Below, piece after piece: positions 3,367-38,597 of a stretch of DNA of 64,000 nt. The stretch is from Lingula anatina (Eukaryota; Animalia; Brachiopoda). The notes under the pieces were generated by a model that saw only the letters and a program-made list of their open reading frames with translations, made no database searches and was not told the DNA's origin. The position numbers and the translations under genes are program-made. Each line of letters opens with the position of its first letter. Positions within the stretch are counted from its first letter, which is position 1. The DNA is taken from contig CM120643.1 in NCBI GenBank assembly GCA_051362555.1, positions 930,001 to 994,000 of the forward strand, given 5' to 3'.

Positions 3367-5000
3367 TTAACTTCCATTTTGTACACATATATGTTTCATA
3401 AATATACATTTAATATAAATTCACATAATTATATACATGTCATTTAATACTAGTTTCACCCAGTTACAATGTCACTAGATATATAAGGTATCATCTCGAC
3501 ATTTCTAAGTTCAGGGTAGACAACATACCAGAATATCTGACCATCTGGGGCCGTATCTCAACATGTCTTCTAAAACTACATATTCTTATGTATTATTATG
3601 GATTAATGTTTAACACACATTTGACAATACAATAACACAATTGAACAAATGAAATAAGCTGTTGAATTATGCCTGGTATCTTGAATATAGAATATTTGTA
3701 AATGAGTATTGCAGAAAACTTACAACTTGATAAATAAATAGAGTTTCATTTGTCAGTAGCTATAAAATAAAAACCAAAATCTACCAGCCAGCTGACCAAG
3801 TATACAGTTTTGAAATTTTTTAGGCATTTTACAGCGTGCTCTGGGACTGGGGTCAGTTATTTGTTTGGTTCAGTAATGTGCAGGGTTGAGGGGGGTCCAG
3901 CATAATATCTATATTTAAATAATTCTACATAAGTGTGTCATAGATATACTGACATTATATTTTGGTGATTGGAGATTTGCTAATTGTTTAACACAAATAT
4001 TTATTTTTAATTACCGACCCGACATTTGAAAATAAGTACTTATCTGTTTTGTCTGACACACGAAAATTAAGCTATTCCTACTAGTACGTTAACTATTTTC
4101 AATACACTTTATAACATTTTGAATAACAAAATCTAATATTGTTCTTGAGCCGTTTAAATTAAGTGAAGTGTAATTAAGTGAAGAAAATCTTCACCACATA
4201 GTTGAGGATGAATATGAGATTGCAATTTTGACTTAGTAAGTGAATCGATTCTTAAGAAGTCACAGCTATAGGCCTCATGTGAAGATTGGGCAGTAGGTCA
4301 GGAAAAAATAACAAACCTGTATACCGACTGGAAAGTCCTGACAAATCTCGGGGTGATGTCATATGATATAGATAAGTAGAATCTTCACTACAGGTTTGAA
4401 CAGGAAAGTTAATACAAGTCTTTGGGAGATATGATATAGACATGTGGACGCACTACGGGTTTGTTCTGGTACTTTTGTTTGGTAGGAAGATTGAAAAAAA
4501 ATCATTGAATGACTTCCTATTTCTCGGAATGGCAAAACAGAGTGTTCATGTATGAGATCCATACATGTACAGAATAAGGTAGTGCAAATCCTTAAACCCA
4601 AGACGGAATGTACTGGTACAAATTAATAAATACAGGTGTCCCGTGTACGGCCCGTTCTGGGTGAACCATCCGTCCTGACCGATTGTACACGCAGCAGACG
4701 CGTGTATGAGCCGTTCCGTGAATGATCCGTTGTTATTCACCTGTACTGTTCGGCTAGTTCGTTTCCTACCTCATTATATATTTATTATAATGGGGATATT
4801 TCTAGGTAAAATTCATGTGTTAATTCATAATTTTGATAGAGAAACGGCGTCAAATTACAGTTCGACGTACGGCACACACTGATTAAAAATTATAATATAT
4901 GACCTATCCCACTCTTTGTATTGTTCACATAAAAAGGAAATAAACACATAAAAAATGGCCCACTGACCATTTATGTGTCAATATAAATTGAAAAATCTTA

Positions 5001-7863
5001 TCAAAATTTGTAAAGCTTGAATTTCCAATCAATAAAATTTAAGAATCGACTTGCTTGATTAAATTTGCCTTTAACTATCAGTTCAGTGGCAAGATATTTG
5101 CTCATATTCACAAGCACCTTACTTAATATTATCAATTTTATGAAGTGCACTTTAATATTAAGAGTCACCGTCATTTCGTGATCTGGCCCGAAATGTTCAT
5201 GATAGACTTCAAGACATTTTTCATAATATGTCAGGGCCTCTGAATATTTGCCCATATCATGCAGGACACAGCCAATGTTGCGATATAGCAGGGCAGTATC
5301 AGGGTGTTTGTCACCAAGTATCTCTCTTCTTACGTCAAGAGCTTTTTCGTAGTATTTAAGTGCCTCTGCATGTTCACCTAACTCACTAAGTGCATGTCCT
5401 TTATTGCTGTATTCACTGACAGTGTCAGGATGTTTGAATCCAAGAACTATTTCTCTAACTCCAAGACATTTATTATGGTACGTGAGTGCTTCTCTATTCT
5501 TACCCATGTGAGCAAGCGCCAGACCCATATTGCTATAAGTATTAGCAGTATCCGGGTGATTGGGTCCAAGGACTTCCTCCCTGCCTTCAAGACATTTATG
5601 ATAACATGCAATTGCGTCTTCATACCTGCCCATATCACAGTACAAGTTGCCCATGCTGTGGTATATGGCGGATGTTTCAGGGTGTTTTGGACCCATGAGC
5701 TCTGTCATGGTGTCAAGGTTTTCAGAATAATATTTAAGTGCATCTTCTGGCTTACCAGTTTCCGTTAGTATTTTACAAATATTTGTAATTGCTTTGACAG
5801 TCTCAATGTGCTGTGACCCGAGTACATCTTTCAAGATTGCATGTGATTTCTTATAATATGCTAATGCTTCTGGATTATTACCCATTTCGGTCAATGTGTT
5901 ACCAATATTGTTATATGTTTTGGCAGTTAGAGGATGTTTGGGGCCAAATATTTCTTCAAATACTGAAAGTGATTTCTTGTTATACGTGAGGGCTTCTCTA
6001 TACTTCCCCATTCCTCTATACACCTCACCAATATTGCTGTAAGCCGAAGCAGTATAAAAGTTTTTAGAACCAAATGATGACTCTAAGACGTCAATACTTT
6101 TCTGGTGGAATGTAAATGCTTCTCTAAACCTACCCATTTCCTTCAGGATTGTGCCATGTGCGTCATATTTCATGGCTGTATTAGGATGTTTGGGACCAAA
6201 TACTTTCTCTAAGATATCAATACATTTTTCTTGATTTGAAAGGGCTTCTGTATACTTGCCTATGGACCTAAGTGTATCAGCAATACTACTGTATGTGTCG
6301 GCAATGTCAGGATCGTTAGACCCAAGGTTTTCTTGCTGGACTTCAAGACATATTTGCAAATATGATATTGCCTTAATGTACTCACCGATTTCCTTTAGGA
6401 CATAGCCCATTTTGCCGTAAACTGAAGCCATCACGGGGTGGCTAGAATCCAGTGAGTTTGTCAAGATTTTTACACTTTTTTGATAAAAGTCGTAGGCATC
6501 TTTGTATTTTCCCATTCCACACAGCACATTTCCAATGTACATATAGACAATTCCACCAAAAGACCTCAACGTACCTTCTTGTACCAACATTTTCAATGAG
6601 TTCAGTATTGAAAAGGCTTCAGGGAATAAAAAAAGGTTTTGAAATACAGAGGCAATGTGCAGCAAATCTTTGAATATAATTTCTTTGTCGCTTGGTTTGT
6701 TGTTGCTCAGCTGATCTGACAGCAAACCAGCAATAAGCCTAAGATGTGGCAGTATCTTTTGTGCTTTTGCGTGCGTTTCTTTAGACGGAAGGGTATCAAA
6801 TTCGGATAACAGAAGAGGAGTTTGTTTCATGTAATATTTGCAGTATGCATCTTGTATGTGAGCTATTTCATTTTGATCTTTCCTTGTTTGAAACTCCGCA
6901 TAAGCTCTTAACAAGGGATGGAGATCAAAGGAACTTAGGTCTGAACTGAGAAGGGATTTGTTGGAAAGACTGTCAAGGATAGATTCACATTCATCCTCAT
7001 CTATTTCAAACATTTCTGAAACTTCTTCCAGAGAAAATGAGACTGGAAACATATGCAAAGCCCTAAATACTCTTTTTTCTTCAGTATTTAGTGTTTCATA
7101 AGACATATCCAGGCATGCCATCATTTCTTGAGAAGCTGGAAGATTTGCTACCTTAAGACTTTCAATAACATTTTTGTTTTTTATCCTGTCTAATACTCTC
7201 TGCACAGTTTTTTTCTTGAGTTGAACTGCTAATAATTTCAGTGCAAGTGGATTCCCCCCACATTTTTCTGCTATTTCACTTAACACTACTGATTCACTAT
7301 CAGTGGGTCTAGAGGTTTTTCCTTCCCAAAGAATATCAATGGAAGGGGCCTCATCAAGGGGAGGTAAGTCATGACAGCCATGTGATGCGACATTTGACTG
7401 AATGCTTCACGACTGGTGCACAGTAAATTGATATGCTTTGTTGAATTCAAAATATCTTGGATCAATTTGTGAAATTCTTGCAAATTTGACTTCAATACCT
7501 CATCATTGTTATCAAATATTATAACAGTGTCTGAAGTTAAACTAGACAGAGATTGTATGAATACATTTTGATAGTCACTGTATAAATCTTTCAGGGAACT
7601 TGTTGGGTGGTAGTGCTGGACTAGAGATAACTTCACAGATTCAAGGTTGGTGACTTGTCTCATATCAATGAACAACACATTTTGCTCGCGATGCCCGACC
7701 TCGATAGCCACCGAGGTCTTCCCAATGCCCCCCATCCCAGTTAGAAGAACAAGCCTGGTTTCACCTGCAATGTGCCGCTGTATTTGTTGAACCAAGTCTT
7801 CACGGCCTTTAAGGTCAGCAAATTTTCCTGGTAGCTGTACTGAGAGGAGCTGACACGGGGCAA
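5001..7863 (-). CDS. Exon 2 of HEPN-STAND-TPR NLR-like gene: NB-ARC/STAND ATPase plus ~11 TPRs; one 1-nt frameshift at ~7370-7410
   Basis: Acceptor ttattttcAG at 7865-7864. Walker A GMGGIGKT, Walker B VIIFDN and sensor LLCTSR in ORF 7286-7795. After the frameshift: LPPLDE, GxP motif CGGNPLAL, MHD-like FDLHPLL and 42-aa TPRs with LGxxHPxTA linkers in ORF 5001-7286. Confidence 0.88.
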
Positions 7864-9465
7864 CTGAAAATAAAATATTAAAATATGATAATAAACAGGA
7901 TTATAACTTTTTGCAATAATGACCTTGGTAGCCTATCATCTACTTAGATTTTTTAATGATTTATGTAATATTACATAATCAAACGGTTTAAATAAACGTT
8001 TATTCAAAAGCCAAATCATATTGTACTTATACCACACATTATCAGTGTCATTATTTCAAAATAATTGGTTCACAGATAATATCAAGATTTATTTCAATAT
8101 CAAGGTATATATTGCTCGATCCTGACTGTATTCAAATATATGTATGCCTGATTGAGTTAATTTGTCAATGCATATACTAATAATGGAAGCATTGCATAAT
8201 ATACTCCCTTACCAAAAAGTGTCACCCCTACCTCATTTTTGTACATGACTACAAGAGTACCCGCAGATTGAATTGCACTATTAAATAACGACCATCGTGT
8301 AAATTGGGGGTGTGAGTAGTAGAACATTAACCTACCTAGCGTGACCACAACAGCAACTAGATTTCATGAATTAGTGGGATACTTTCTTTACCAAGCGGGC
8401 GACACAGGAGGGAGGTACCAGAAGGAACTACATGTACCAGAAGTTTTGGTTGTTCCATGAGAGCCATTTGGTGGATAAGGCAACATCATAACCAAACAGA
8501 CACATGGGCAAGATTACCTGGGTAAAGCCGCCAGAAAGCCCGGGCTACACTGCGCTTGCAACCTTTTGGTAATTTTCGCGAGGCTATAAATCGTCTCCTA
8601 CAGAGGAGTGCCGTTTCCCCATTTTCGAGAAATTATATATGTCTGTCGTATTGCAGAAGTGACAGTTAAACATTCTATAATTTCGCAATACTACGTGGGT
8701 TTTCTGATATAAATTACCTAAACAACACCTCCCTAAAGCATTTTGTAAAACATTCACACTAGGCACGAAGTAGTATTTTTGGGCGAAGGGGTGAAATTTC
8801 CCTTGGGACCACATGTAACACTATAAATACAAACTCACTAAAGGCAAAATAAACGTTATACATTCCAAGCAATTTACCTTTTAATACATGCAATCATCAA
8901 AACATTTCCAATATAATGTCTCAAAACGACACCAGAAAGCAAATTAAAAAAAAATGAAATCAACCAATCTAGATCAATCCCCCGTTGAGAATTTGTCGGA
9001 TATCCTACGAAATGAAAAGCTGATGGATAAAATATCTTTACAACGTATGAGGAACGCCATCAAACGTTATTATTCTACATGTATTTAATCCCATGCACAG
9101 ACGCGTCAGGTGCGTCCTACAACCCAGAGGAAACTGCAAAATATTAAACACGATGCGTTTTTTTAACTACATGTATGGCTGGCTTATTTATTTGTTGTAC
9201 AGGTAGTAAAGTGTTGTGGTAAATCATTTTTAGAAGTTTAATAAATAACACTGGTTGATAACATGATTTCTGTAGCGCTTTACCCATTTTATTAGGGGTG
9301 ACGTTTTGGTAGGGGAGTATAGTTAGCCTGAATGCCTTACCGTAGACCAGTAGGTACAAGCGCATTCAACACTAATTAAAATGTTGTACAGTTCAACTCC
9401 GTAAAATACGTTTCTTAAAATTAAGAACAACATTTTTTTTTTTTGCAAATGCTGTTTTAACATAC

Positions 9466-10054
9466 CTTTAGCCTCCAGTGGCACAATAAGAAGCTTGTCG
9501 TAGTCATCGCTGGTATATATTGGTGACAGTGACAGCAGGATGTGCTTGAGATCATTAAACTCTGCCTGAAATGCTGTGTTTGTGATGCCAAGACGATGTC
9601 CATGCGAGAGCTGATTGCGGTAGGTCTTCACTCTACCAATGTTGGCCTCTATGGAGGTGTCGGTAACTGGTGGATTTTCCCATTTAGCATGAAGGTTCAG
9701 ATTGGTGATGTTTCTTAGTAAAACAGCTGCAAGTGTAATATCTAAGTCCTGCGTTGTCACAGTTGTTGAAGGGTCGCCAGAGGGGTACAGGAGTTTCATT
9801 TGACTCGAGTTCATTACATTTCTCTTTTTCAACAGAAGCACAGAATGTTTGACTTGTTGATTGTCAAGTACATCAAACAGTTTGTCAGTTTTACTGGGAT
9901 CAAACAGTCCTGGATAAGCTGCTTGTAGCTGAGTCCTGAGAACATCTCTAAGCACGTCAGTTGCACGTTCTAAGAGCAGCCGCATGCGGAAATAATTTTC
10001 TTTTTCATTTCTTGGGATTTCAGAGAGCATTCCCACTGCCGTTGCCATGGTCAT
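9466..10054 (-). CDS. Exon 1 (first coding exon) of NLR-like gene: DZIP3-type HEPN domain
   Basis: Acceptor AG directly before ATG 10054. LYP...DLDITLAAVLLRN and RNQLSH (HEPN R-X4-H). Donor AAAG|GTATG at 9465 is phase 1 and joins in frame to the exon at 7863 (PLEAK-V-APCQLL...GREDLVQQI). Confidence 0.88.
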
Positions 10055-11289
10055 CTACCGATCCAAATAATAAAAAAAAAGCAAATGATATGTTTGTTAT
10101 TCTAGTTGTTTACTCAATTTATACATTAACGGTAAACAATAAAGAAAAAAGATTGAGCTTTTTATGTACCAAAGACGTCGTTTCAAAATGCACCTCAATG
10201 TATACTGTCTTATACATCAGGTTATGAAATGGTCGTTGGACCTACATGTAGGAAAGAATTGATTTTCATTAAAATGGTTAAAAATAAAGGGTGTGTGACT
10301 GAGGTTAAATGGAAGTTAAATACCATGGAGGAAGCATTTCCAATTTTTCATAGAACAGGCCCAGTTCCCTTTGCATTAAAATACAGTAGAAAGGGAACTA
10401 AGCAGGAATCACTTATCTTACAGTATGGAATGCAAGAAAAACGATCGCATCAGGTAAATTGCAAATACTATACCAACTCGCAGTGACAAAACCTGACTTT
10501 CAACCATTTAACCACATGAAGTGAACCATAAAATCCAAATTGAAGTAGCAAATATCAGGTTTGCCTACCCTGAATAGAGCCAGTGTTAACAATAACGGGA
10601 CTAACATCCATTTTGTGACCGCTACCCCCAATATGCAGTCATCACATGGGAACTCCATTCCTAGGACTACCATTTCTGTCACACCGGCTAAATTTAACCT
10701 CTACTAATTATAAGGGACCCACAATTCCTTTACTAGTCATTAACTTTTACTGCACTCATTATGAAGATTTCCGGGTGTCCATTTTTTGTACTATGATTTT
10801 CTATTTTAACCAGGATGCTAGTTATATTTTGCACAGTCATGTAATCTAGGAACAAAATTAGCGACAAGATACATACCAGAACGCTTCATTTTTACTGCAT
10901 ACGTGTAATACACAGGTGAATATCATATCATTTAAACTGAATATGGATGATATATGTAACTGCTCTTTCACTGGCTTGAGGTTATTTTTCTTCTTTTCAT
11001 TTTGTCCTGTACACTCCATGTATTTCTAGAAGAGGGTCATCATCCACCCATCGCCTTCCACAGTGTATCTTCCACGGGATTAATGGTTGGTATCCGCTAG
11101 GTATACGTATTCACAAATATACTATGATATCTAGCTATACTAGAATCAGCCCTGCTAGGGCATACCTGTGGATATCTAGGGGAAAGCAATATGTGGCCCT
11201 AGTTAAGGGTTACATGATCTTCTTAAACGTTTGGGCATCGCACGGTGCTAAAAGAATCACGCATGTAATTTAGTTGATGAACAAATTAA

Positions 11290-12235
11290 TGTTTAGCCGC
11301 CCTTGATGAACTTACCGAAATGTCTCCTTGTAAAATCTGTCGTTACAGCTTCGACATCTAAAACCTCAGGTAACTTGGTGTTGCTAGTTAACTGCGAAAT
11401 TTATCGAAACAGCTCCGGAAAAAACGCTAAGTTAAAAATAACCACATTGGACGTGAGTCTCGCGATAAACTCTTAAACAATGCATAGTTTTCACAAAGTT
11501 TTGGGCTATTTTGTATGCTTTCAACCCAATTTTGTCTAGCAAAGTCCTTCAGCCTAAGTAAAAACTGGCTTACAAAGGTATTTATATCACCCACATTTTG
11601 TGCTATCTGTGCATAACCAAAACCATACATATACATGTAAATTATTTGTTTCACTTTAGTCACCCAGTTAATCCTTCCATGTTCATCTAGGGTATGCAAC
11701 ATATTATTGCAAGCTCTGGGGTACCTCTCTCGTTCCATCCTAATCAATTCCATCCAATACTTAATGCATCGTATAGTGTAAACTGGATACATTGGTAATC
11801 TACCAGTTTCTCCGAGAACCACGACATTTGAAGTCCTTGAACTCAGCCCTAATAATTTTTTACAGAATTTATGTTGAACTATTTCTATTTGTTCACATTT
11901 CTCGAAGCCCCAAATTTCAGCACAGAGTTGGTACAACAACATGATCAAAGAATTATAGCGACTGAGTCAAAGGCACGTCAAATTTTCTAATAAAGTATAT
12001 CAGAATATTCATGGCTTTTTCTCCTTGCTGTGCTAGGGTACTCTTACCTTTGCTCCAGGACAAAAAAGCTGAGAATATCAGCCCTAGGTACTTATAATGG
12101 CTAGCAATTTCTACCTCCTTATTATTTAGGAACCATTTTTCATGTTTATTTAAATTACCACCTCGTCTGAATACGATGGTTTTTGTTTTATCTATGTTGA
12201 TCATCATGCCATATTTTTTACAGAAGTTTTCTAGT
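11290..12235 (-). mobile_element. Degenerate LINE (RTE-X/L2-like), 3' part of ORF2
   Basis: INIDKTKTIVF...YKYLGLIF (RT end) and EIWG...KFCKKLLG...VLGETGRLP...CIKYW in ORFs 11953-12207 and 11427-11948; frameshifted; clade assignment tentative. Confidence 0.8.
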
Positions 12236-12356
12236 TTTATATTTTAATTCGCTTACGCTTAAACGTATATAAATTATTTATCGTCTAATAACTCTCAACG
12301 AATAAAACCACTTCATCTTCAAACACCAAATCATTGAGTCGATGTGCCTCTGCCTG
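12236..12356. repeat. Split direct repeat B2 (partner B1 12693-12830)
   Basis: aattcgcttacgcttaaacg...gagtcgatgtgcctctgcctg present twice. Confidence 0.9.
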
Positions 12357-12995: not shown

Positions 12996-13978
12996 TCAAA
13001 TACCCAAGTTTAAAGATACACTCATTCTTTGCAATATATTGTCTTTAATATAACCGTCTTTCGCTTTATCCGATTTCCAGCGACCATGTTTTTTGAATAA
13101 TCGTTCTTTTATCCCGCAATTTGCTGCAGCTGATGCGCCACCTGCTCGTAGACTACGTAGTCCAAATTTACTTTTATCAAAACCCAATTCTTCAAATTTT
13201 TGTAAAACCGTTTCTCTCATACGTGTATACGACAATTTTTCCAGTATCCCTTAAAACATGTTTTCCTGATTTCTTTAAATACTTGACCGATCTGAAAATA
13301 TACTTCTCTGAATCTTCTTCTTTGTCTGCGGCTCTTAGATATCTTTGTAAGAAAACATATGGGCATGAAGTCTTACCTGTTCTGGCTATTAAAACATTAG
13401 AGCCATCTCTGTATATATCAGTTTTGCTTTTTTCTATAAAAACTTCAAAATATGAATTTTTGAATATAATATCTGTTCTTCTAATTGAGGATACCTCGCT
13501 ATATCTTAAAAATCTTGAAAATGATAATAAACATATACAGACATCTCTCAAATCGGGCAAACTGGCGTTAGGTTTTGCAAATCTATTAACACGTTTATTA
13601 AGCATGTCACTGGTTACTATTTCCTTTTTTATTGTTCTGTTACATGACAGTCTTTTTGCTGCTTCCACAATATTACTGATCAAAGCGTTATCGCAAGGAT
13701 TTCGTGTTATTCCAGCAATATCATGAACCCATTTTAAGGCATATTTCACATCCTGTATTGCTCCTGGTTTACTCTCTTGTTGAATTAAACTTAACATATA
13801 TAGTGCAATGTGACTTGTGGATGCCGGGAATATGTTAACCTCTGTAAATTTCCCTGCCCAATTCTTCCACTTTTGAAATATATAAGTATACTTTTTCACT
13901 TGGTAACTCTTTACCCAATCTTCGTAAAGTTGCATTATTGAAATCCTTTAATTCCATCCAAACTCCAGATTGGAATAC
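12996..13978 (-). pseudogene. Tyrosine recombinase (YR) of the DIRS/PAT element, frameshifted
   Basis: FLRYSEV (catalytic R), KSKTD, GLRSLRAGGAS (HxxR with H>R), KKHGRWKS..DGY; split over ORFs 13835-14074, 13192-13935 and 12996-13235. Confidence 0.88.
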
Positions 13979-18470: not shown

Positions 18471-19812
18471 TCATCATGTACAGAATAGAACTACTCAAAT
18501 AGAATTGATAAAGCACGAACTTACTCTGAAGGTTTCCTTTCTTCTCCTCAAATTCTCCACTGCCACTTCGGCTCTCTGTTCTGTAAAAACTGAGATAGGT
18601 ACCGCACACGGTCAGTTGTGTTTACGTATTCTTCAATCGCTGAGTTTAGTGCTTACATACAACTTTATTTATAAAGATCAGATTTTGAACCACAAAGTCA
18701 AACCTATCACTTAGATGTGTCTACGTAAACAATATGAAGATTCAGCAAAGTAAGCCTCGTGACTATCGAAGTAAGAACCTCACTCGCACCCCAGTCTTAC
18801 TTCAAAGTTGCACATGTCACCTCGACCACGTAAACTGATTGTGTGCGATTTTGTGCTTCAAAAATTACTCTCACAAATGCCTGTTACCTTTTTCATTAAA
18901 GAATATCGGTTAAAATGTTGCAGTCCACGTACATTTGAAGGAAACGACCGTTAAGTACACAGCAATGTCGATCTCGTCGATGCCATATTGAAACACGTGC
19001 GTATTTACGGCTCAGTGTTTACATCCAGGTTCCGGATATAGATGCAAAGCGCGCGCAATATTTAAATTATCTTTGACTGACAAGTGAGGAAGTCTCAAAT
19101 AGCGGTATAAAAAAGCGCTCAAAAACATCATAGGGAAGAAATTTATGAGTTTGTTGTGAGCAGACATGTAAGTTAGGTATATTTGAACACCACCAAACTA
19201 TTTTAATGAGGAAAATCAGCGAACTTTTCGTTAAAATCTGAGCACGTATGGGCCTTTAATCCGGACTATAAACCTTTATAAAATATACCTTCATCCCATA
19301 ACGCTTTTCAATTATAAATTTCAACTCTGTATAACTTTTGTTGCAGTGTCAATCCTGACTAGTAACCTTCCTAAATTATACCTTCATTCCATCATGTTTT
19401 TTCCCAATATAAATTTCAGTTTTGTATACCATTTGTCGCAGTGTCAATCCTGACAGTCAATTTATATAAAATACATCTTCATGCCGTAACAACTTTCAAA
19501 TATATATTTCAATTCTTTTTAACATTTGTTGCATTGTCAATCCTGACTGGCAACCTTCATAAAAATACACCAACATGCCATAAAACTTTCAAATATATAT
19601 ATTTTATTTCTGTGTAATATTTGTTGCAGTGTCAATCCTGACTTGCAACCTTCATAAAAATACACCGTCATTCCATCACACCTTCTACATATAAATTTTA
19701 ATTCTGTATAATGTTTGTTGCAGTGTCAATCCTGACTGGCAACCTTCATAAAAATACACCATCCCATCACGCCTTTGAAATATAACCTTCCTTTTTAGAA
19801 AATATTCTTGTA

Positions 19813-21100
19813 TTAAAATCCTGTCTCCCCATCAATCCTGACTGCCAAAACTTTATCCTTAAATTTCTGCGACCCTATGTAAGATTGCTTATTTTTCCCC
19901 TTCTTAAAAATACCCTTGTTATCGAAAATAAGAACATCTTTTATGTAAATTTTCCACTTCATATCTCTGTCAAATATCATTGGCCAAAATGCAGCCGACT
20001 TCCAACTTGGAACGACTAAAGTGCCTTTTGCTTTACAATTTAATAAATGGTTTATCGCCTTTTGTACCAAACCTACAGGTGGAACTATCCAATTATTCTC
20101 ATGCTGCCAATTTTGTAAAAATGCGTCTGTTGCCTCTGTATTTGGATTCCAAAATCTTGAATTAAAACGGTTTGTCTTTGTATTTTCAAAATTCGCAAAT
20201 CTATCTACAGTGTGAGGTCCCCATTTTTTATCCAAAAATTCGAAAAAAGAAGATTCTACCTCCCAGTCGTCTATGTCTACCAATTTGCTGATATAATCTG
20301 CTTTTTCATTTTTTGATCTAGGTATCCAGTTTACTGTCAAGCTGATTTCATGACATGTACATAAATGATATATTTGTAAAGCTAAATTTTGTAGATCACG
20401 TTTCATAGATCCTGCCTGTACAATCCTCACGACATTTTGATTATCTGTGTACCAACCTATTTTACTTCTTTTTATAACTTTAATAAAAGCTTGTAATGCA
20501 ATTGCAATTGCCTTCAACTCCCTCCATGTGGAACTTTTCTCCTTTTCTTCATCTGACCACATTTTGTGACAAATGTCAGATTGACAACGTACCAAATAGG
20601 CACCACATGCATAATCACTAGCATCTGAAAATCCCAAGATTTTGGGTATTTCATTTAAGAATAAATGTCTTTTATTTAGACAATGAATGTTTGACAACCA
20701 AAAATGTAACTCATTCAGAATTTCTGTATTTGAACGAAAATTTTTGCATTCGTCCCAACTGTTTCTATCATTGATTGCGTGATACATATTTCTTGTCATT
20801 AATCTACTAATATCTCCAATAACTGTTGACATTAATATAATTTTTCCTGTAATTCGAGCCAATTCACGTGCCAATGTCATATTAATATTTTGCATCAGTT
20901 TTCTAATATCATTTTTCAATTCTGAAACCCTTTTTTCTGTGATTGATATCGTACCCTGTATCAAATTCCAATGAATACCTAACCAATCAATCTCTTGAAC
21001 TGGTCTCCATATACTCTTTTCATTGTTCACTACGAAACCCGATTTCTTCAATCTACCTTTCACATTGTCGCTATTATACTTATCTTTTAGAGTTGTATCT
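19813..21100 (-). CDS. DIRS pol ORF: truncated RT C-terminus, RNase H and DNA adenine methyltransferase-like domain
   Basis: GFVVNNEKSIWRPVQEIDWLG (RT end); FSDAS, SSTWREL, WYTDNQNV, WIPRSKNEKAD (RNase H); WGPHTVDRFA..RFNSRFW..DAF..NW..VPP (MT). RT core with YxDD is absent. Confidence 0.88.
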
Positions 21101-21103
21101 GTC

Positions 21104-22036
21104 TTATTGACTGCCGACCTGTGCGTAGCTGTAGTAGCTTGGGTTCGGTTCCGTGCTGTTTTGAAAGTATGACTGCTTTTGCTGGTTAAATTTGGAGCAT
21201 TCTGCTCGCCAGTGACCGTATTGCCCACATCCAAAACACTGGTCATACTTGGACGGTTGACTTCTTTTGGCTCGAAAAAGCCTTTTGAATGGCCCTGAAC
21301 CTGAAAAATTGGCTGAGGCTGTATATTGAGCAGGCATATTGGAATAGCTATTATAAACACCAGACCTACGTTGACCGACATTGTTGCGTTTCTGTTTTTT
21401 CTGGCGCAATTTTCTATTTGCTCTTATCTGGGCTGAACGAATTTTCTTTTCGTCTTCACTATCATCTGCAAGATCATCGGATTGATATTCTTCCACAGCT
21501 TCCCAACCAGCATCCGATTTGTCCGCCAATCTTATAAGCTTGTTACGTTTCTTAATTTGATCTACGGACCTTTTCAGTAACTGTCTTCCAGACTTCACTT
21601 CCCCTTTCTTAAAGTAACTCTCTGCAATCTCAAGGTTTTCAAGTACTTCAGTGTTAAATTCAAATTGCTTTCTGTTTCCTTTGAACTTGAATTCAATGGG
21701 ATGACCTCAATTTTTTGTTTTCTGCTATATTTTTCTCGGACAGTTCTCTTTTTAATCCTTTAAACTTTTGATCCATATAGGATTTAAACAAATTGAAAGT
21801 ATCAGCAAGATTTGAGCCAACTTCACCTGGTGGCCATTTCTTGGCCACTCCCTTCATTTTCAAACTCTCCGCTCTCCTCGGTCGAGTAGTTTTTAGCCTC
21901 TTTGTTTGATGCCACACCCTCCGACTGTATCAACTCAGGTTCGCTCACCTCAGGCCTCTCAATTTCTTTCTCAGTATGTTCAGAATCTGACTCAAACACT
22001 TTCTCTATCCTTTGTGATTTCCTACCCTTTGGCATA
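21104..22036 (-). pseudogene. DIRS gag-like ORF1 with CCHC zinc knuckle, two frameshifts
   Basis: MPKGRKS... start; KRNKLIRLADKSDAGWEAVEEY; CFGCGQYGHWRAEC; split across ORFs 21823-22230, 21693-21917 and 21104-21598. Confidence 0.82.
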
Positions 22037-30831: not shown

Positions 30832-31305
30832 TTATACTGGTTCATATCCTTTTTTCAATGTTGGCTTGGCAAGTATACTACTAACGTATGCTTCCAACTC
30901 TCTCTTTATCTGATTCTGATTAAGTCGCTCTTCAGGCTGACGTTGGGTGCACTTCTGGATAATCGCCCACCACTTGGTCTCCAACCCCTGGGCGTTGGCA
31001 CCGTGAACATCGCTGAGTGCTGAGAGCACCGCCTCTCCTGTTCGGAGACGGTTAGTGAACTCTTCTACGGTGACGTCACTGGCATCATCGTAGACTTGCT
31101 GACCGTTCCACAGCTCCCACATTATCAAACCAAAACCATAGATGTCGCCTTCGTGTGTGTACACCCCGCCTTGGAGGACCTCTAGCGGCAAATATCTGCA
31201 GGCACCGAGGGGCTGTAGGCGTCCAGCTGATGGGATATTCGCCGGTCTTGGACACCCAATGTTAAAGAGTTGAATGTGTCCATGTTTCTCCGGCGGCTGA
31301 TCCAC
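30832..31305 (-). CDS. Dynamin-like/pseudokinase gene, terminal exon (kinase C-lobe)
   Basis: Acceptor tgtAG, phase 0; IQLFNIG (DFG site), YLPLE (APE site), EGDIYGFGLIMWELW, CTQRQPEERL. Confidence 0.85.
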   Translation of the reverse strand: MDQPPEKHGHIQLFNIGCPRPANIPSAGRLQPLGACRYLPLEVLQGGVYTHEGDIYGFGLIMWELWNGQQVYDDASDVTVEEFTNRLRTGEAVLSALSDVHGANAQGLETKWWAIIQKCTQRQPEERLNQNQIKRELEAYVSSILAKPTLKKGYEPV

Positions 31306-36190: not shown

Positions 36191-36635
36191 CATTTGGATG
36201 ACACTCAAAATAAATGCTTCTCAGAGCGGCAGATCCAACACCACGATTCTACAACACATACCAGTAAACACGTCTTATGTCTTTTTTTTATCTTCGTCTA
36301 CGACACGTCCACACAAAGATGTCATTGCGAATATTCAAAAACTTGCAATGGTGCATCTATATAAACTAGAATAATTTCATTGCCAATAAACTGTTCCAGC
36401 TTTCTTAAATAAAGCTTTTACTTTCTGCAGCGGTTTGAGTACGTGACTTTGACATGTAAAGTTATTACAAAGATCAACCCAAAGCAGTGTAAAATGGTCT
36501 ACTTGCTTCGCTACGGTATTACTGATGAAAACAGGATTCTCACTTTAGCACACATGCTCAGGCACAAACGCACACACAAACAAAAACAAAAACGCACATG
36601 CAAAAAAAAAAAAAAAAAAAAAAACATTTTCTCAC

Positions 36636-37850
36636 CTCAGAGCTGCAATATCATCTAAAGCATCATCCTCCGTAACTTCCAGATATGCCTTGATCATCAC
36701 TTTCGCTCCAGAATCTTTCAGGTGTAATGGGTAGACCTGCGACCAGATCCCGCTTCTAACAATGGAATCAGTTGGTTGGATGGTTGAAAAGCTTTCAACC
36801 CCATATGATTTTCTATCAATGAATTTCAAATAGAATCTCTCCAGGCGATACAAAGTTGATCCCTGGCCAATGCCAAGCGTTTCCACAAGGGGTCTGTAGG
36901 TATCAATTATTTTGTCTCTGGAACGCTGATCGTCCTGAATGCAAGTTAAAAGCTTTTGTGTACCTTCTACTAACTTTGGAATGTGAGTTTTCATGATCTC
37001 TAGTTGGTGATAGGCAACATCAAATCGGCCTTTCACGTACTCCTTGCAGAGGCCTAAATCCAGGAAAGCTTGACATATCTTGTTTGCTTGTTTTGTCAGA
37101 AAACCTGTCGGGTTGGCACGATAGAGATGTACAACTTCGGCCTGTCTCTTGCGGCGTATCCATTTCTTAATACTGGAAAGTCCAAACAGGGCCATCGGAA
37201 TTGCCGAAAAGATTCCAGATACGCAACCAACGGACATAATTACCGGTGCAAACAGATCAATGGCGACTTTTTCTTTTAATGTCACGATCGGCGTCTTGGC
37301 TACGTCATCATCCTTCAATCCTTCCACATCGATTTGAAACTCATCTGTGATATCCTGCAAATTTCCCCTGGGGTATGCATAAGTTTTTTCAATCAGATCA
37401 TCTTCTATCTGCTTCAATTTACTTTCAAGCAGTTGGAAGTACGTGGCAAACTTTTTGAACTGCGCCTCCAGTGCAGTAGCCATGTAGTTCCCCTTTTTCT
37501 CCCAACTTGAAATTATGGACATTAATTTTTTATTAATGGTTTCTTCTATTATCCACTCAAAGTCCTCAAAGAGTAATCCACTTTGGGTGTCAGGCAATTT
37601 CCACTCCGTTAGTGCCTGTTTTACCTCACTTGTACAGAAGTGATCTTTCAAACAAGTTGCCGTAAATTCTATATTATCTGCTAAGTCTTGTGTGAGTTCC
37701 TCCATCTCGGAATCAGCGTTGTCCAGTAAGGTCTGCAGCTTTTGCTCCACCTGGAGATGGATCTTCAACAGGTCTTCCTTAGACAAAGACGCATTGGAGA
37801 CGTACATTTCGGCAGTGGTCATGACTCTGGTCACAAACCGTCTCAACCAG
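36636..37850 (-). CDS. Dynamin-like/pseudokinase gene, large exon (helical stalk, hydrophobic hairpin, kinase N-lobe start)
   Basis: ttttcaAG acceptor phase 2, AG|GTGAG donor phase 2; coiled coils; VAIDLFAPVIMSVGCVSGIFSAIPMALFGL then KKWIRRKR; IVRSGIWSQVY..VMIK. Confidence 0.85.
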
Positions 37851-37854
37851 CTTG

Positions 37855-38597
37855 AAAATGATGATGATAGAATAAGTAAACCATGAAAGGTGGCAGTCCT
37901 CGGGCTGGGATGATGGTAAAATAAGTAAACCATGAAAGGTGACAGTTCACGGGCTGGGATGATGGTATAATAAGTAAACCATGAAAGGTGACAGTTCACG
38001 GGCTGGGATGATGGTAGAATAAGTAAACCATGAAAGGTGACAGTTCACGGGCTGGGATGATGGTTTAATAAGTAAACCATGAAAGGTGACAGTTCACGGG
38101 CTGGGATGATGGTATAATAAGTAAACCATGAAAGGTGACAGTTCACGGGCTGGGATGATGATAGAATAAGTAAACCATGAAAGGTGGCAGTCCTCGGGCT
38201 GGGATGATGGTAAAATAAGTAAACCATGAAAGGTGACAGTTCACGGGCTGGGATGATGGTATAATAAGTAAACCATGAAAGGGGACAGTTCACGGGCTGG
38301 GATGATGGTATAATAAGTAAACCATGAAAGGTGACAGTCCACGGGCTGGAATAATGATAAAATAAGTAAACCATGAAAGGTGACAGTTCACGGGCTGGGA
38401 TGATGTTAGAAAACGTAAACCATGAAAGGTGACAGTTCAAGGGCTGGGATGAGGGTATAATACGTAAACAATGAAAGGTAACAGTTCACGGGTAGGGATG
38501 ATGGATGATTATGTAAACCATGAAAGGTGACAGTTCACAGGTTGGGATGATGGTAGAATACTTAAACCACGAAACGTGACAGTTCACAGGCTGGGAG
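37855..38597. repeat. 49-bp minisatellite, ~15 units, abutting the splice acceptor
   Basis: Unit aataagtaaaccatgaaaggtgacagttcacgggctgggatgatggta(t/g). Confidence 0.95.

Follow-up and report, generated by a model that had tools for sequence, protein, structure and literature searches.

The question raised by a gene on the minus strand of a 64,000-nucleotide stretch of DNA from the brachiopod Lingula anatina (contig CM120643.1 of assembly GCA_051362555.1, positions 930,001 to 994,000; hereafter the window, in whose own numbering all positions are given) is whether it encodes a working immune receptor, in which a HEPN domain predicted to cut RNA is joined to a STAND-type switch ATPase and a sensor of tetratricopeptide repeats (TPRs). 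DZIP3-type HEPN domains head many invertebrate proteins that resemble the nucleotide-binding, leucine-rich-repeat (LRR) receptors known as NLRs. Our reading, to which we give a probability of roughly 0.6, is that the locus holds a two-exon HEPN-NB-ARC-TPR gene in a frameshifted, likely null form, and that the family to which it belongs is expanded in Lingula, with intact members that are likely cytoplasmic RNA-cutting immune receptors. The features of the gene are collected in Table 1.

Table 1. Features of the HEPN-NB-ARC-TPR gene, in the order of transcription.
Feature	Position in the window	Strand	Basis
Coding exon 1 (HEPN_DZIP3)	9466..10054	-	Pfam PF18738; phase; GT donor; AlphaFold pLDDT 90.9
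R-N-x3-H motif RNQLSH, predicted RNase site	9602..9619	-	motif search
Phase-1 GT-AG intron, 1602 bases, with repetitive DNA inside	7864..9465	-	sequence and RNA reads
Exon 2, first part: nucleotide-binding domain, in frame with HEPN	7371..7863	-	Pfam; tblastn; motifs
Frameshift, one base fewer than intact relatives	7370..7371	-	frame switch in tblastn with P0003 and further paralogs; contigs; reads
Premature stop codon	7286..7288	-	open reading frames; tblastn
Out-of-frame STAND remainder: HD1, winged helix, arm helices	6579..7370	-	NB-ARC profile positions 178-247; identity to P0003; secondary structure of the P0003 model
Eleven 42-residue TPRs of the kinesin-light-chain type, outside the reading frame of this allele	5193..6578	-	TPR_12; repeat register
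C-terminal capping helices and stop codon of the ancestral frame	5001..5192	-	identity to the P0003 protein; P0003 model

The first-pass annotation, made from the letters of the sequence, had taken three open reading frames (ORFs) as pieces of one spliced gene that encodes a single in-frame HEPN-ATPase-TPR protein, and most of its parts were recovered. The HEPN exon (10054-9466) matched HEPN_DZIP3 in Pfam with an E-value of 4.2e-32 and 111.3 bits against a curated cut-off of 27, and its RNQLSH motif, starting at 9619 and intact as annotated, fits the Rx4-6H pattern with a polar residue after the R as defined in PMC3710099 (this and the other papers are cited for the passages that bear on the point). 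The first ATG lies at 10054 and a second at 10048, which is the start in most relatives; the exon stops one base into a codon, directly before a GT, and the intron (9465-7864) closes with a T-rich tract and AG. All the annotated ATPase motifs were located, with GMGGIGKT starting at 7738, IIFDNND at 7522, CTSR at 7420, GNPLA at 7256 and LHPLL at 6923, and together they make up the complete NB-ARC/AP-ATPase set of STAND proteins (Walker A, Walker B, sensor-1, GxP and MHD-type). The estimate of about 11 TPRs agrees with our count of 11 repeats in 6578-5193, a region matched by TPR_12 in Pfam with an E-value of 2.5e-114. The gene is not a canonical animal NLR of the NACHT-LRR kind, as NACHT scored 20.9 bits, below its cut-off of 26.7, and the C-terminus consists of TPRs, with no LRR family matched in Pfam. 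The single in-frame protein was not confirmed, because CTSR and GNPLA lie in different frames with one base short at 7371/7370, and it is this frameshift, not an intron, that splits the second ORF from the third. Upstream of the coding region, a T-rich tract followed by AG stands immediately before the first ATG (10055-10090, minus strand) and resembles a splice acceptor; an untranslated upstream exon likely exists. No upstream coding exon for a death-fold domain was detected, as tblastn with the DED-like N-terminus of P0001 gave nothing at E<1 in the window, and none of 11 family models has an N-terminal extension of more than 15 residues. High-copy repeats with a summed contig depth in the thousands occur at 4600-4870, just downstream of the gene, and at 8400-9020, inside the intron.

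The reality of the frameshift decides what the locus can encode. ORFs 7286-7900 and 5001-7406 occupy different frames, and tblastn of Lingula proteins switches frame at 7370, while the protein alignment puts the lost base at 7371/7370. Because the base is lost between CTSR and GNPLA, the spliced frame ends before the ATPase lid and all TPRs, and the product has 388 residues, namely the HEPN domain, the nucleotide-binding domain and 28 out-of-frame residues up to the stop at 7288-7286. The nucleotide-binding domain, helical domain 1 (HD1) and winged-helix domain (WHD) stand in one continuous frame in the closest relative, P0003, but not in the window copy. The deletion was found in a 238-base contig (7221-7458) with no differences to the window, assembled from short words of two DNA runs, X1 (depth 47) and X2 (depth 75.6), which makes an assembly slip unlikely. 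The additional base is present in the Lingula proteins, in an X5 contig that differs at 7 letters over 205 bases, in one X3 contig and two more divergent X2 contigs (24 of 131 pieces examined), and in all four X17 RNA reads that span the site (2 starts); X3 and X5 come from two studies other than that of X1 and X2. It is therefore very improbable that the gene is intact in the animal, with the frameshift either an assembly error or bypassed by a micro-intron or ribosomal frameshifting. Such an explanation would account for a downstream frame that is open for 801 codons and near-identical to P0003, and for a deletion seen in runs of one study only, but it is opposed by the identical contigs from two runs, by a break site that is not homopolymeric, by relatives that are one base longer, and by the sequence between CTSR and the break, in which we could read no fitting GT-AG micro-intron. 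A micro-intron or recoding at the break was rejected, since the relatives simply carry one more base. Read through with an X at the break, the gene has 1148 codons with no further stop, which indicates that the loss is recent. In X1 the TPR region is assembled into a single contig of 2199 bases (window 4796-6994), whose depth of 40.8 is roughly half the 80-110 of the intron contigs; a second haplotype may be without the TPR region or divergent there, or the intron may be common to a paralog. With high confidence we regard the window copy as broken; it is likely a recent null allele, and its most plausible history is a recent loss within a family that evolves by birth and death. As this copy is broken, functional work needs an intact relative such as P0003.

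The null reading could fail if the 388-residue HEPN-nucleotide-binding fragment were made and cut RNA without regulation, or interfered with intact paralogs in a dominant-negative way, which we consider improbable. HEPN, Walker A, Walker B and sensor-1 are indeed intact and in frame, and the stop lies in the last coding exon, with no intron after it within the coding region; yet, by the P0003 model, the break interrupts the STAND module ahead of HD1 and WHD, which would likely destabilize the module, and a 2.3-kb untranslated tail would trail the stop. Moreover, no RNA read 99% alike was found in four runs, chosen by species label (0/30, 0/12, 0/140 and 0/53 reads, with 6-26% of each run covered), though those animals probably carry other haplotypes and the result is uninformative on this allele. 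The same reads bear on the intron. Five X16 reads with three starts join 9466 to 7863, skipping exactly 1602 bases, so that the phase-1 intron of the first-pass annotation stands as to its ends, phase and joint. Among the 140 X16 reads that match the locus, however, 12 are 95-99% and 128 are 90-95% identical to it, and none reaches 99%; the joint is therefore established for close relatives (paralogs or other alleles) and not for this allele.

We then consider the family from which the null allele would have been lost, for which paralogs were counted in protein databases only. The HEPN exon matches among longer proteins were all from L. anatina (10/10), and a profile search gave 66 matches, including at least 11 L. 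anatina models with HEPN, ATPase and TPRs, 10 of which keep R-N-x3-H. The closest relative, P0003 (LOC106175059, 1147 residues), is 96% identical in the ATPase module and 88% in HEPN, and, being intact, matches NB-ARC over the whole profile with 40.1 bits against a cut-off of 23.5. Along the gene the identity to P0003 is uneven, with 94-98% in the ATPase, 58-76% in the first TPRs and 100% in the last 148 residues, while parts of the window HEPN are nearer P0002 (96%) or P0005 (92%) than P0003. This mosaic of identities suggests recombination among paralogs. Several Lingula models (P0010, P0013, P0015, P0017 and P0068) look incomplete, some being without Walker A or HEPN, others having few TPRs or consisting of the HEPN exon alone, which is consistent with frequent gene decay or with poor models.

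Structure models extend the comparison beyond sequence. The HEPN model matched the HEPN proteins Csm6 (Z 7.1, root-mean-square deviation 3.9, 117 aligned residues) and AbiF (Z 7.0, 5.5, 161 aligned) as the top two of 48,161 chains, with Cas13, HepS and sacsin HEPN ranking lower; a sequence search of the PDB with the HEPN exon gave nothing at E<0.4. The AlphaFold model of P0003 (pLDDT 88.5, pTM 0.69) has as its best match the STAND-TPR protein PH0952 (E 5e-15), and the ATPase part of the family profile also matches AfsR, PH0952, Apaf-1 and plant NLRs; in the ESM Atlas only generic NB-ARC clusters were found. The architecture and the NLR-like character proposed in the first-pass annotation are thus borne out for the family, through the 11 Lingula models and the likeness of the P0003 model to PH0952, but not for the window copy, which is cut before HD1, WHD and the TPRs. 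Over 124 repeats the entropy is highest at positions 10, 20, 17, 39 and 13, then 21, and among 118 repeat pairs at least 70% alike, which are not independent of each other, positions 10, 13, 17, 20 and 21 differ most (0.60-0.81 of pairs). The spacing of these five positions corresponds to one helix face, the face that lines the ligand groove in TPRs.

Several observations weigh against our reading and temper its probability. The deletion has no independent holder, since X1 and X2 share one study and may come from the same animal or even from the source animal of the assembly. P0010 of Lingula and a cluster of Montipora relatives (P0093, P0214-P0217) are without R-N-x3-H, so that catalysis would be dispensable in some members. 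The fold matches of the HEPN model are modest (Z <8), and Foldseek gave none at E<=0.001 (best E 0.17). Expression of the relatives is low, at 140 reads in X16, 30 in X10 and 12 in X13, the last two mostly on repeats. The TPR variation, taken from repeat pairs that depend on one another, represents differences at the protein level.

On balance we find it somewhat more plausible than otherwise, by analogy with characterized STAND proteins, that the intact members are TPR-gated, oligomerizing RNases that switch stepwise. At rest the protein would be an ADP-bound monomer whose TPR arm, like that of PH0952/MalT, keeps the ATPase closed. Activation would begin when a foreign or altered protein binds the TPR groove lined by the five variable positions, upon which ADP would be exchanged for ATP, with the sensor-1 Arg of CTSR and the His of LHPLL taking part, and oligomerization would follow. 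Two HEPN heads would then pair into a composite R-N-x3-H RNase site, as HEPN domains generally pair for RNase activity, and cellular or invader RNA would be cleaved, which would halt translation. The product of the window allele would comprise HEPN and a truncated nucleotide-binding domain and would be devoid of both sensor and oligomerization scaffold. The switch steps are modeled on Avs7 (PMC13581612) and PH0952/MalT, and the RNase role of Rx4-6H follows PMC3710099. In Avs7 an Arg serves for ATP and a His for ADP (PMC13581612), and we infer from the sequence that these may correspond to the sensor-1 Arg and the LHPLL His of the Lingula family.

A different role for the intact sensors, in which the HEPN head binds RNA or recruits partners instead of cutting, or in which the family is devoted not to pathogen defense but to self/non-self recognition or the control of stress, seems unlikely, though it is the likeliest of the alternatives. 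Besides the motif loss in P0010 and the Montipora relatives, a CARD sits on a related ATPase-TPR body in Lingula P0087, and related HEPNs adjoin CARD, caspase or a DED-like domain, as adaptors do; an RNA sensor is given as an alternative in PMC8662601, and a fungal NB-ARC-TPR governs allorecognition (PMC13449251). Nevertheless, in an alignment of 43 HEPNs the R and N of the motif show conservation of at least 90%, and Rx4-6H is kept in 194 of 202 pearl-oyster DZIP3-type HEPN proteins (PMC9646362), a conservation that points to kept catalysis.

The HEPN exon also appears in other company. P0004 carries a HEPN 95% identical to that of P0003 joined to a Roc-COR GTPase, with the similarity stopping at the exon end; its Roc-COR part has no counterpart in the window (best E 0.66). 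In P0001 and P0068 the protein stops two residues past the HEPN exon end, which, judged by the sequence, would be donor read-through. Among the more distant HEPNs of Lingula, fusions to an interferon-inducible GTPase (IIGP), CARD-NACHT, CARD or caspase occur (models including P0069, P0071 and P0078), all these fusion proteins being database gene models only. Tentatively, we propose that the phase-1 HEPN exon may be a portable RNase cassette placed on several self-assembling NTPases (NB-ARC-TPR and Roc-COR, with older copies on an IRG-type GTPase and NACHT), and that the TPR arrays may at the same time be rearranged and diversified on their groove face; this would yield polymorphic, adaptor-free, RNA-destroying receptors that segregate as functional and null alleles and whose layout arose independently of the one in corals. 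The cassette behavior and the variable TPR face are, to us, the most interesting points of the family. The compact two-exon members with intact motifs, the near-identical HEPN heads on different switches and the natural null allele make direct RNA cutting by invertebrate NLR-like proteins easy to address in Lingula.

Beyond Lingula, HEPN_DZIP3 and TPR_12 were found together, with the ATPase between them, in 11 of 35 proteins picked from the best 150 matches, among them proteins of the corals Montipora capricornis (P0093) and Stylophora pistillata (P0118); a Branchiostoma protein has HEPN and NB-ARC with no TPRs. The coral proteins have the same three-part layout as the Lingula family but share only about 25-30% identity with it, and their HEPNs group separately: in the HEPN tree those of Lingula stand together (94 in the approximate likelihood-ratio test SH-aLRT), apart from a coral-type set (97). 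The ATPase tree, with a weakly resolved backbone, also places Lingula and coral ATPases on separate branches (138 of 158 rows kept, near-copies dropped). A single clade of NB-ARC-linked HEPNs was rejected by the approximately unbiased test (p 0.03, 31 of 43 rows), a result partly driven by P0004 that does not prove independent origins. Independent assembly of the Lingula and coral proteins is possible on these trees, and a horizontal origin from bacteria is neither supported nor excluded, the ATPase backbone being weak.

The surroundings of the gene contain pieces of retroelements on the minus strand upstream of it. A tyrosine recombinase (13192-13947, a weak Phage_integrase match) and, at 19813-21423 and 21104-21706, a reverse transcriptase-RNase H with a Dam-like methyltransferase and a zinc-knuckle ORF were found, a set which we take to resemble DIRS elements. 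Broken ORFs at 11427-12243 (minus strand), for which Pfam gave no family in 11430-11966, resemble remnants of the reverse transcriptase of a long interspersed nuclear element. The window also has a protein kinase C-lobe exon at 30832-31305 (minus strand; PK_Tyr_Ser-Thr, E 3.5e-10) and two tandem arrays, one of about 5 copies of 95 bases at 19258-19760 and one of 15 copies of 49 bases at 37860-38596, which overlaps a 470-codon open frame (36632-38044).

In the literature searched, which was mostly outside subscription papers (e.g., Gerdol et al. 2018 on Lingula immunity), we found neither an animal HEPN-NB-ARC-TPR protein by that name nor a functional test of the DZIP3-type HEPN heads of invertebrate NLR-like proteins. 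HEPN-bearing NLRs do occur in invertebrates, as the first-pass annotation had stated: more than 50 HEPN-NACHT proteins with haplotype variation are described in pearl oyster (PMC9646362), 17-83 per anthozoan (PMC8260672), and HEPN-NLRs in nine invertebrate taxa, for which functional work is called for (PMC8662601). These proteins, in which a DZIP3/hRUL138-like HEPN precedes NACHT and LRRs, TPRs or WD40 repeats, share with the Lingula family the HEPN_DZIP3 domain with Rx4H, a STAND NTPase, repeats, expansion and haplotype variation; they differ in that the Lingula ATPase is NB-ARC rather than NACHT, the sensor is made of 42-residue TPRs rather than LRRs, and the window copy is frameshifted. Animal DZIP3 HEPN fused to TPR and NACHT and bacterial HEPN-STAND-TPR-S1 proteins are both described in PMC3710099, where RNA degradation in defense is proposed.

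The bacterial Avs (AVAST) and HEPN-STAND-TPR-S1 proteins (PMC13581612, PMC3710099) share the enzyme head, the STAND switch and the TPR sensor, whereas the Lingula gene is a spliced animal gene and the HEPN of bacterial HEPN-STAND-TPR-S1 is Swt1-like and not DZIP3. In PADLOC, P0003 matched two TPR models only, the HEPN exon matched none and no Avs model was hit, so that the label Avs-like holds as an analogy of layout and no further. PH0952/MalT-type STAND-TPR proteins, to which P0003 has its best structural match, have a TPR sensor that touches the ATPase at rest and locks it (PMC6468293), and fungal and brown-algal NB-ARC-TPR receptors show fast-evolving repeats, birth and death, and shuffling with ROCO-type families (PMC13449251, PMC3341825), the fungal NLRs varying between strains from intact to broken (PMC13449251); both groups carry effectors other than HEPN, and Ectocarpus has one exon per repeat, unlike Lingula with its ATPase and all TPRs in one exon. 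NLR-like proteins of eukaryotes that carry an enzyme at the head, and whose PNP domain was tested, are also described (10.1101/2023.01.24.525353). Among animals, human SAMD9/SAMD9L likewise combines a STAND module with an RNase at the N-terminus and a TPR domain at the C-terminus (PMC12680541) and is characterized as a tRNase that cuts RNA directly and restricts viruses by tRNA cutting (PMC13600222), but it has an AlbA_2 nuclease and extra SAM, SIR2-like and OB domains, rests ATP-bound and is encoded by one or two genes; none of AlbA_2, SAM, SIR2-like and OB is among the best 25 of 26 Pfam families for P0003, whose N-terminal 194 residues are HEPN. In essence, the concept of nuclease-STAND-TPR immunity is not new, as SAMD9 and Avs illustrate, and the window gene is a broken member of a known but functionally uncharacterized kind.

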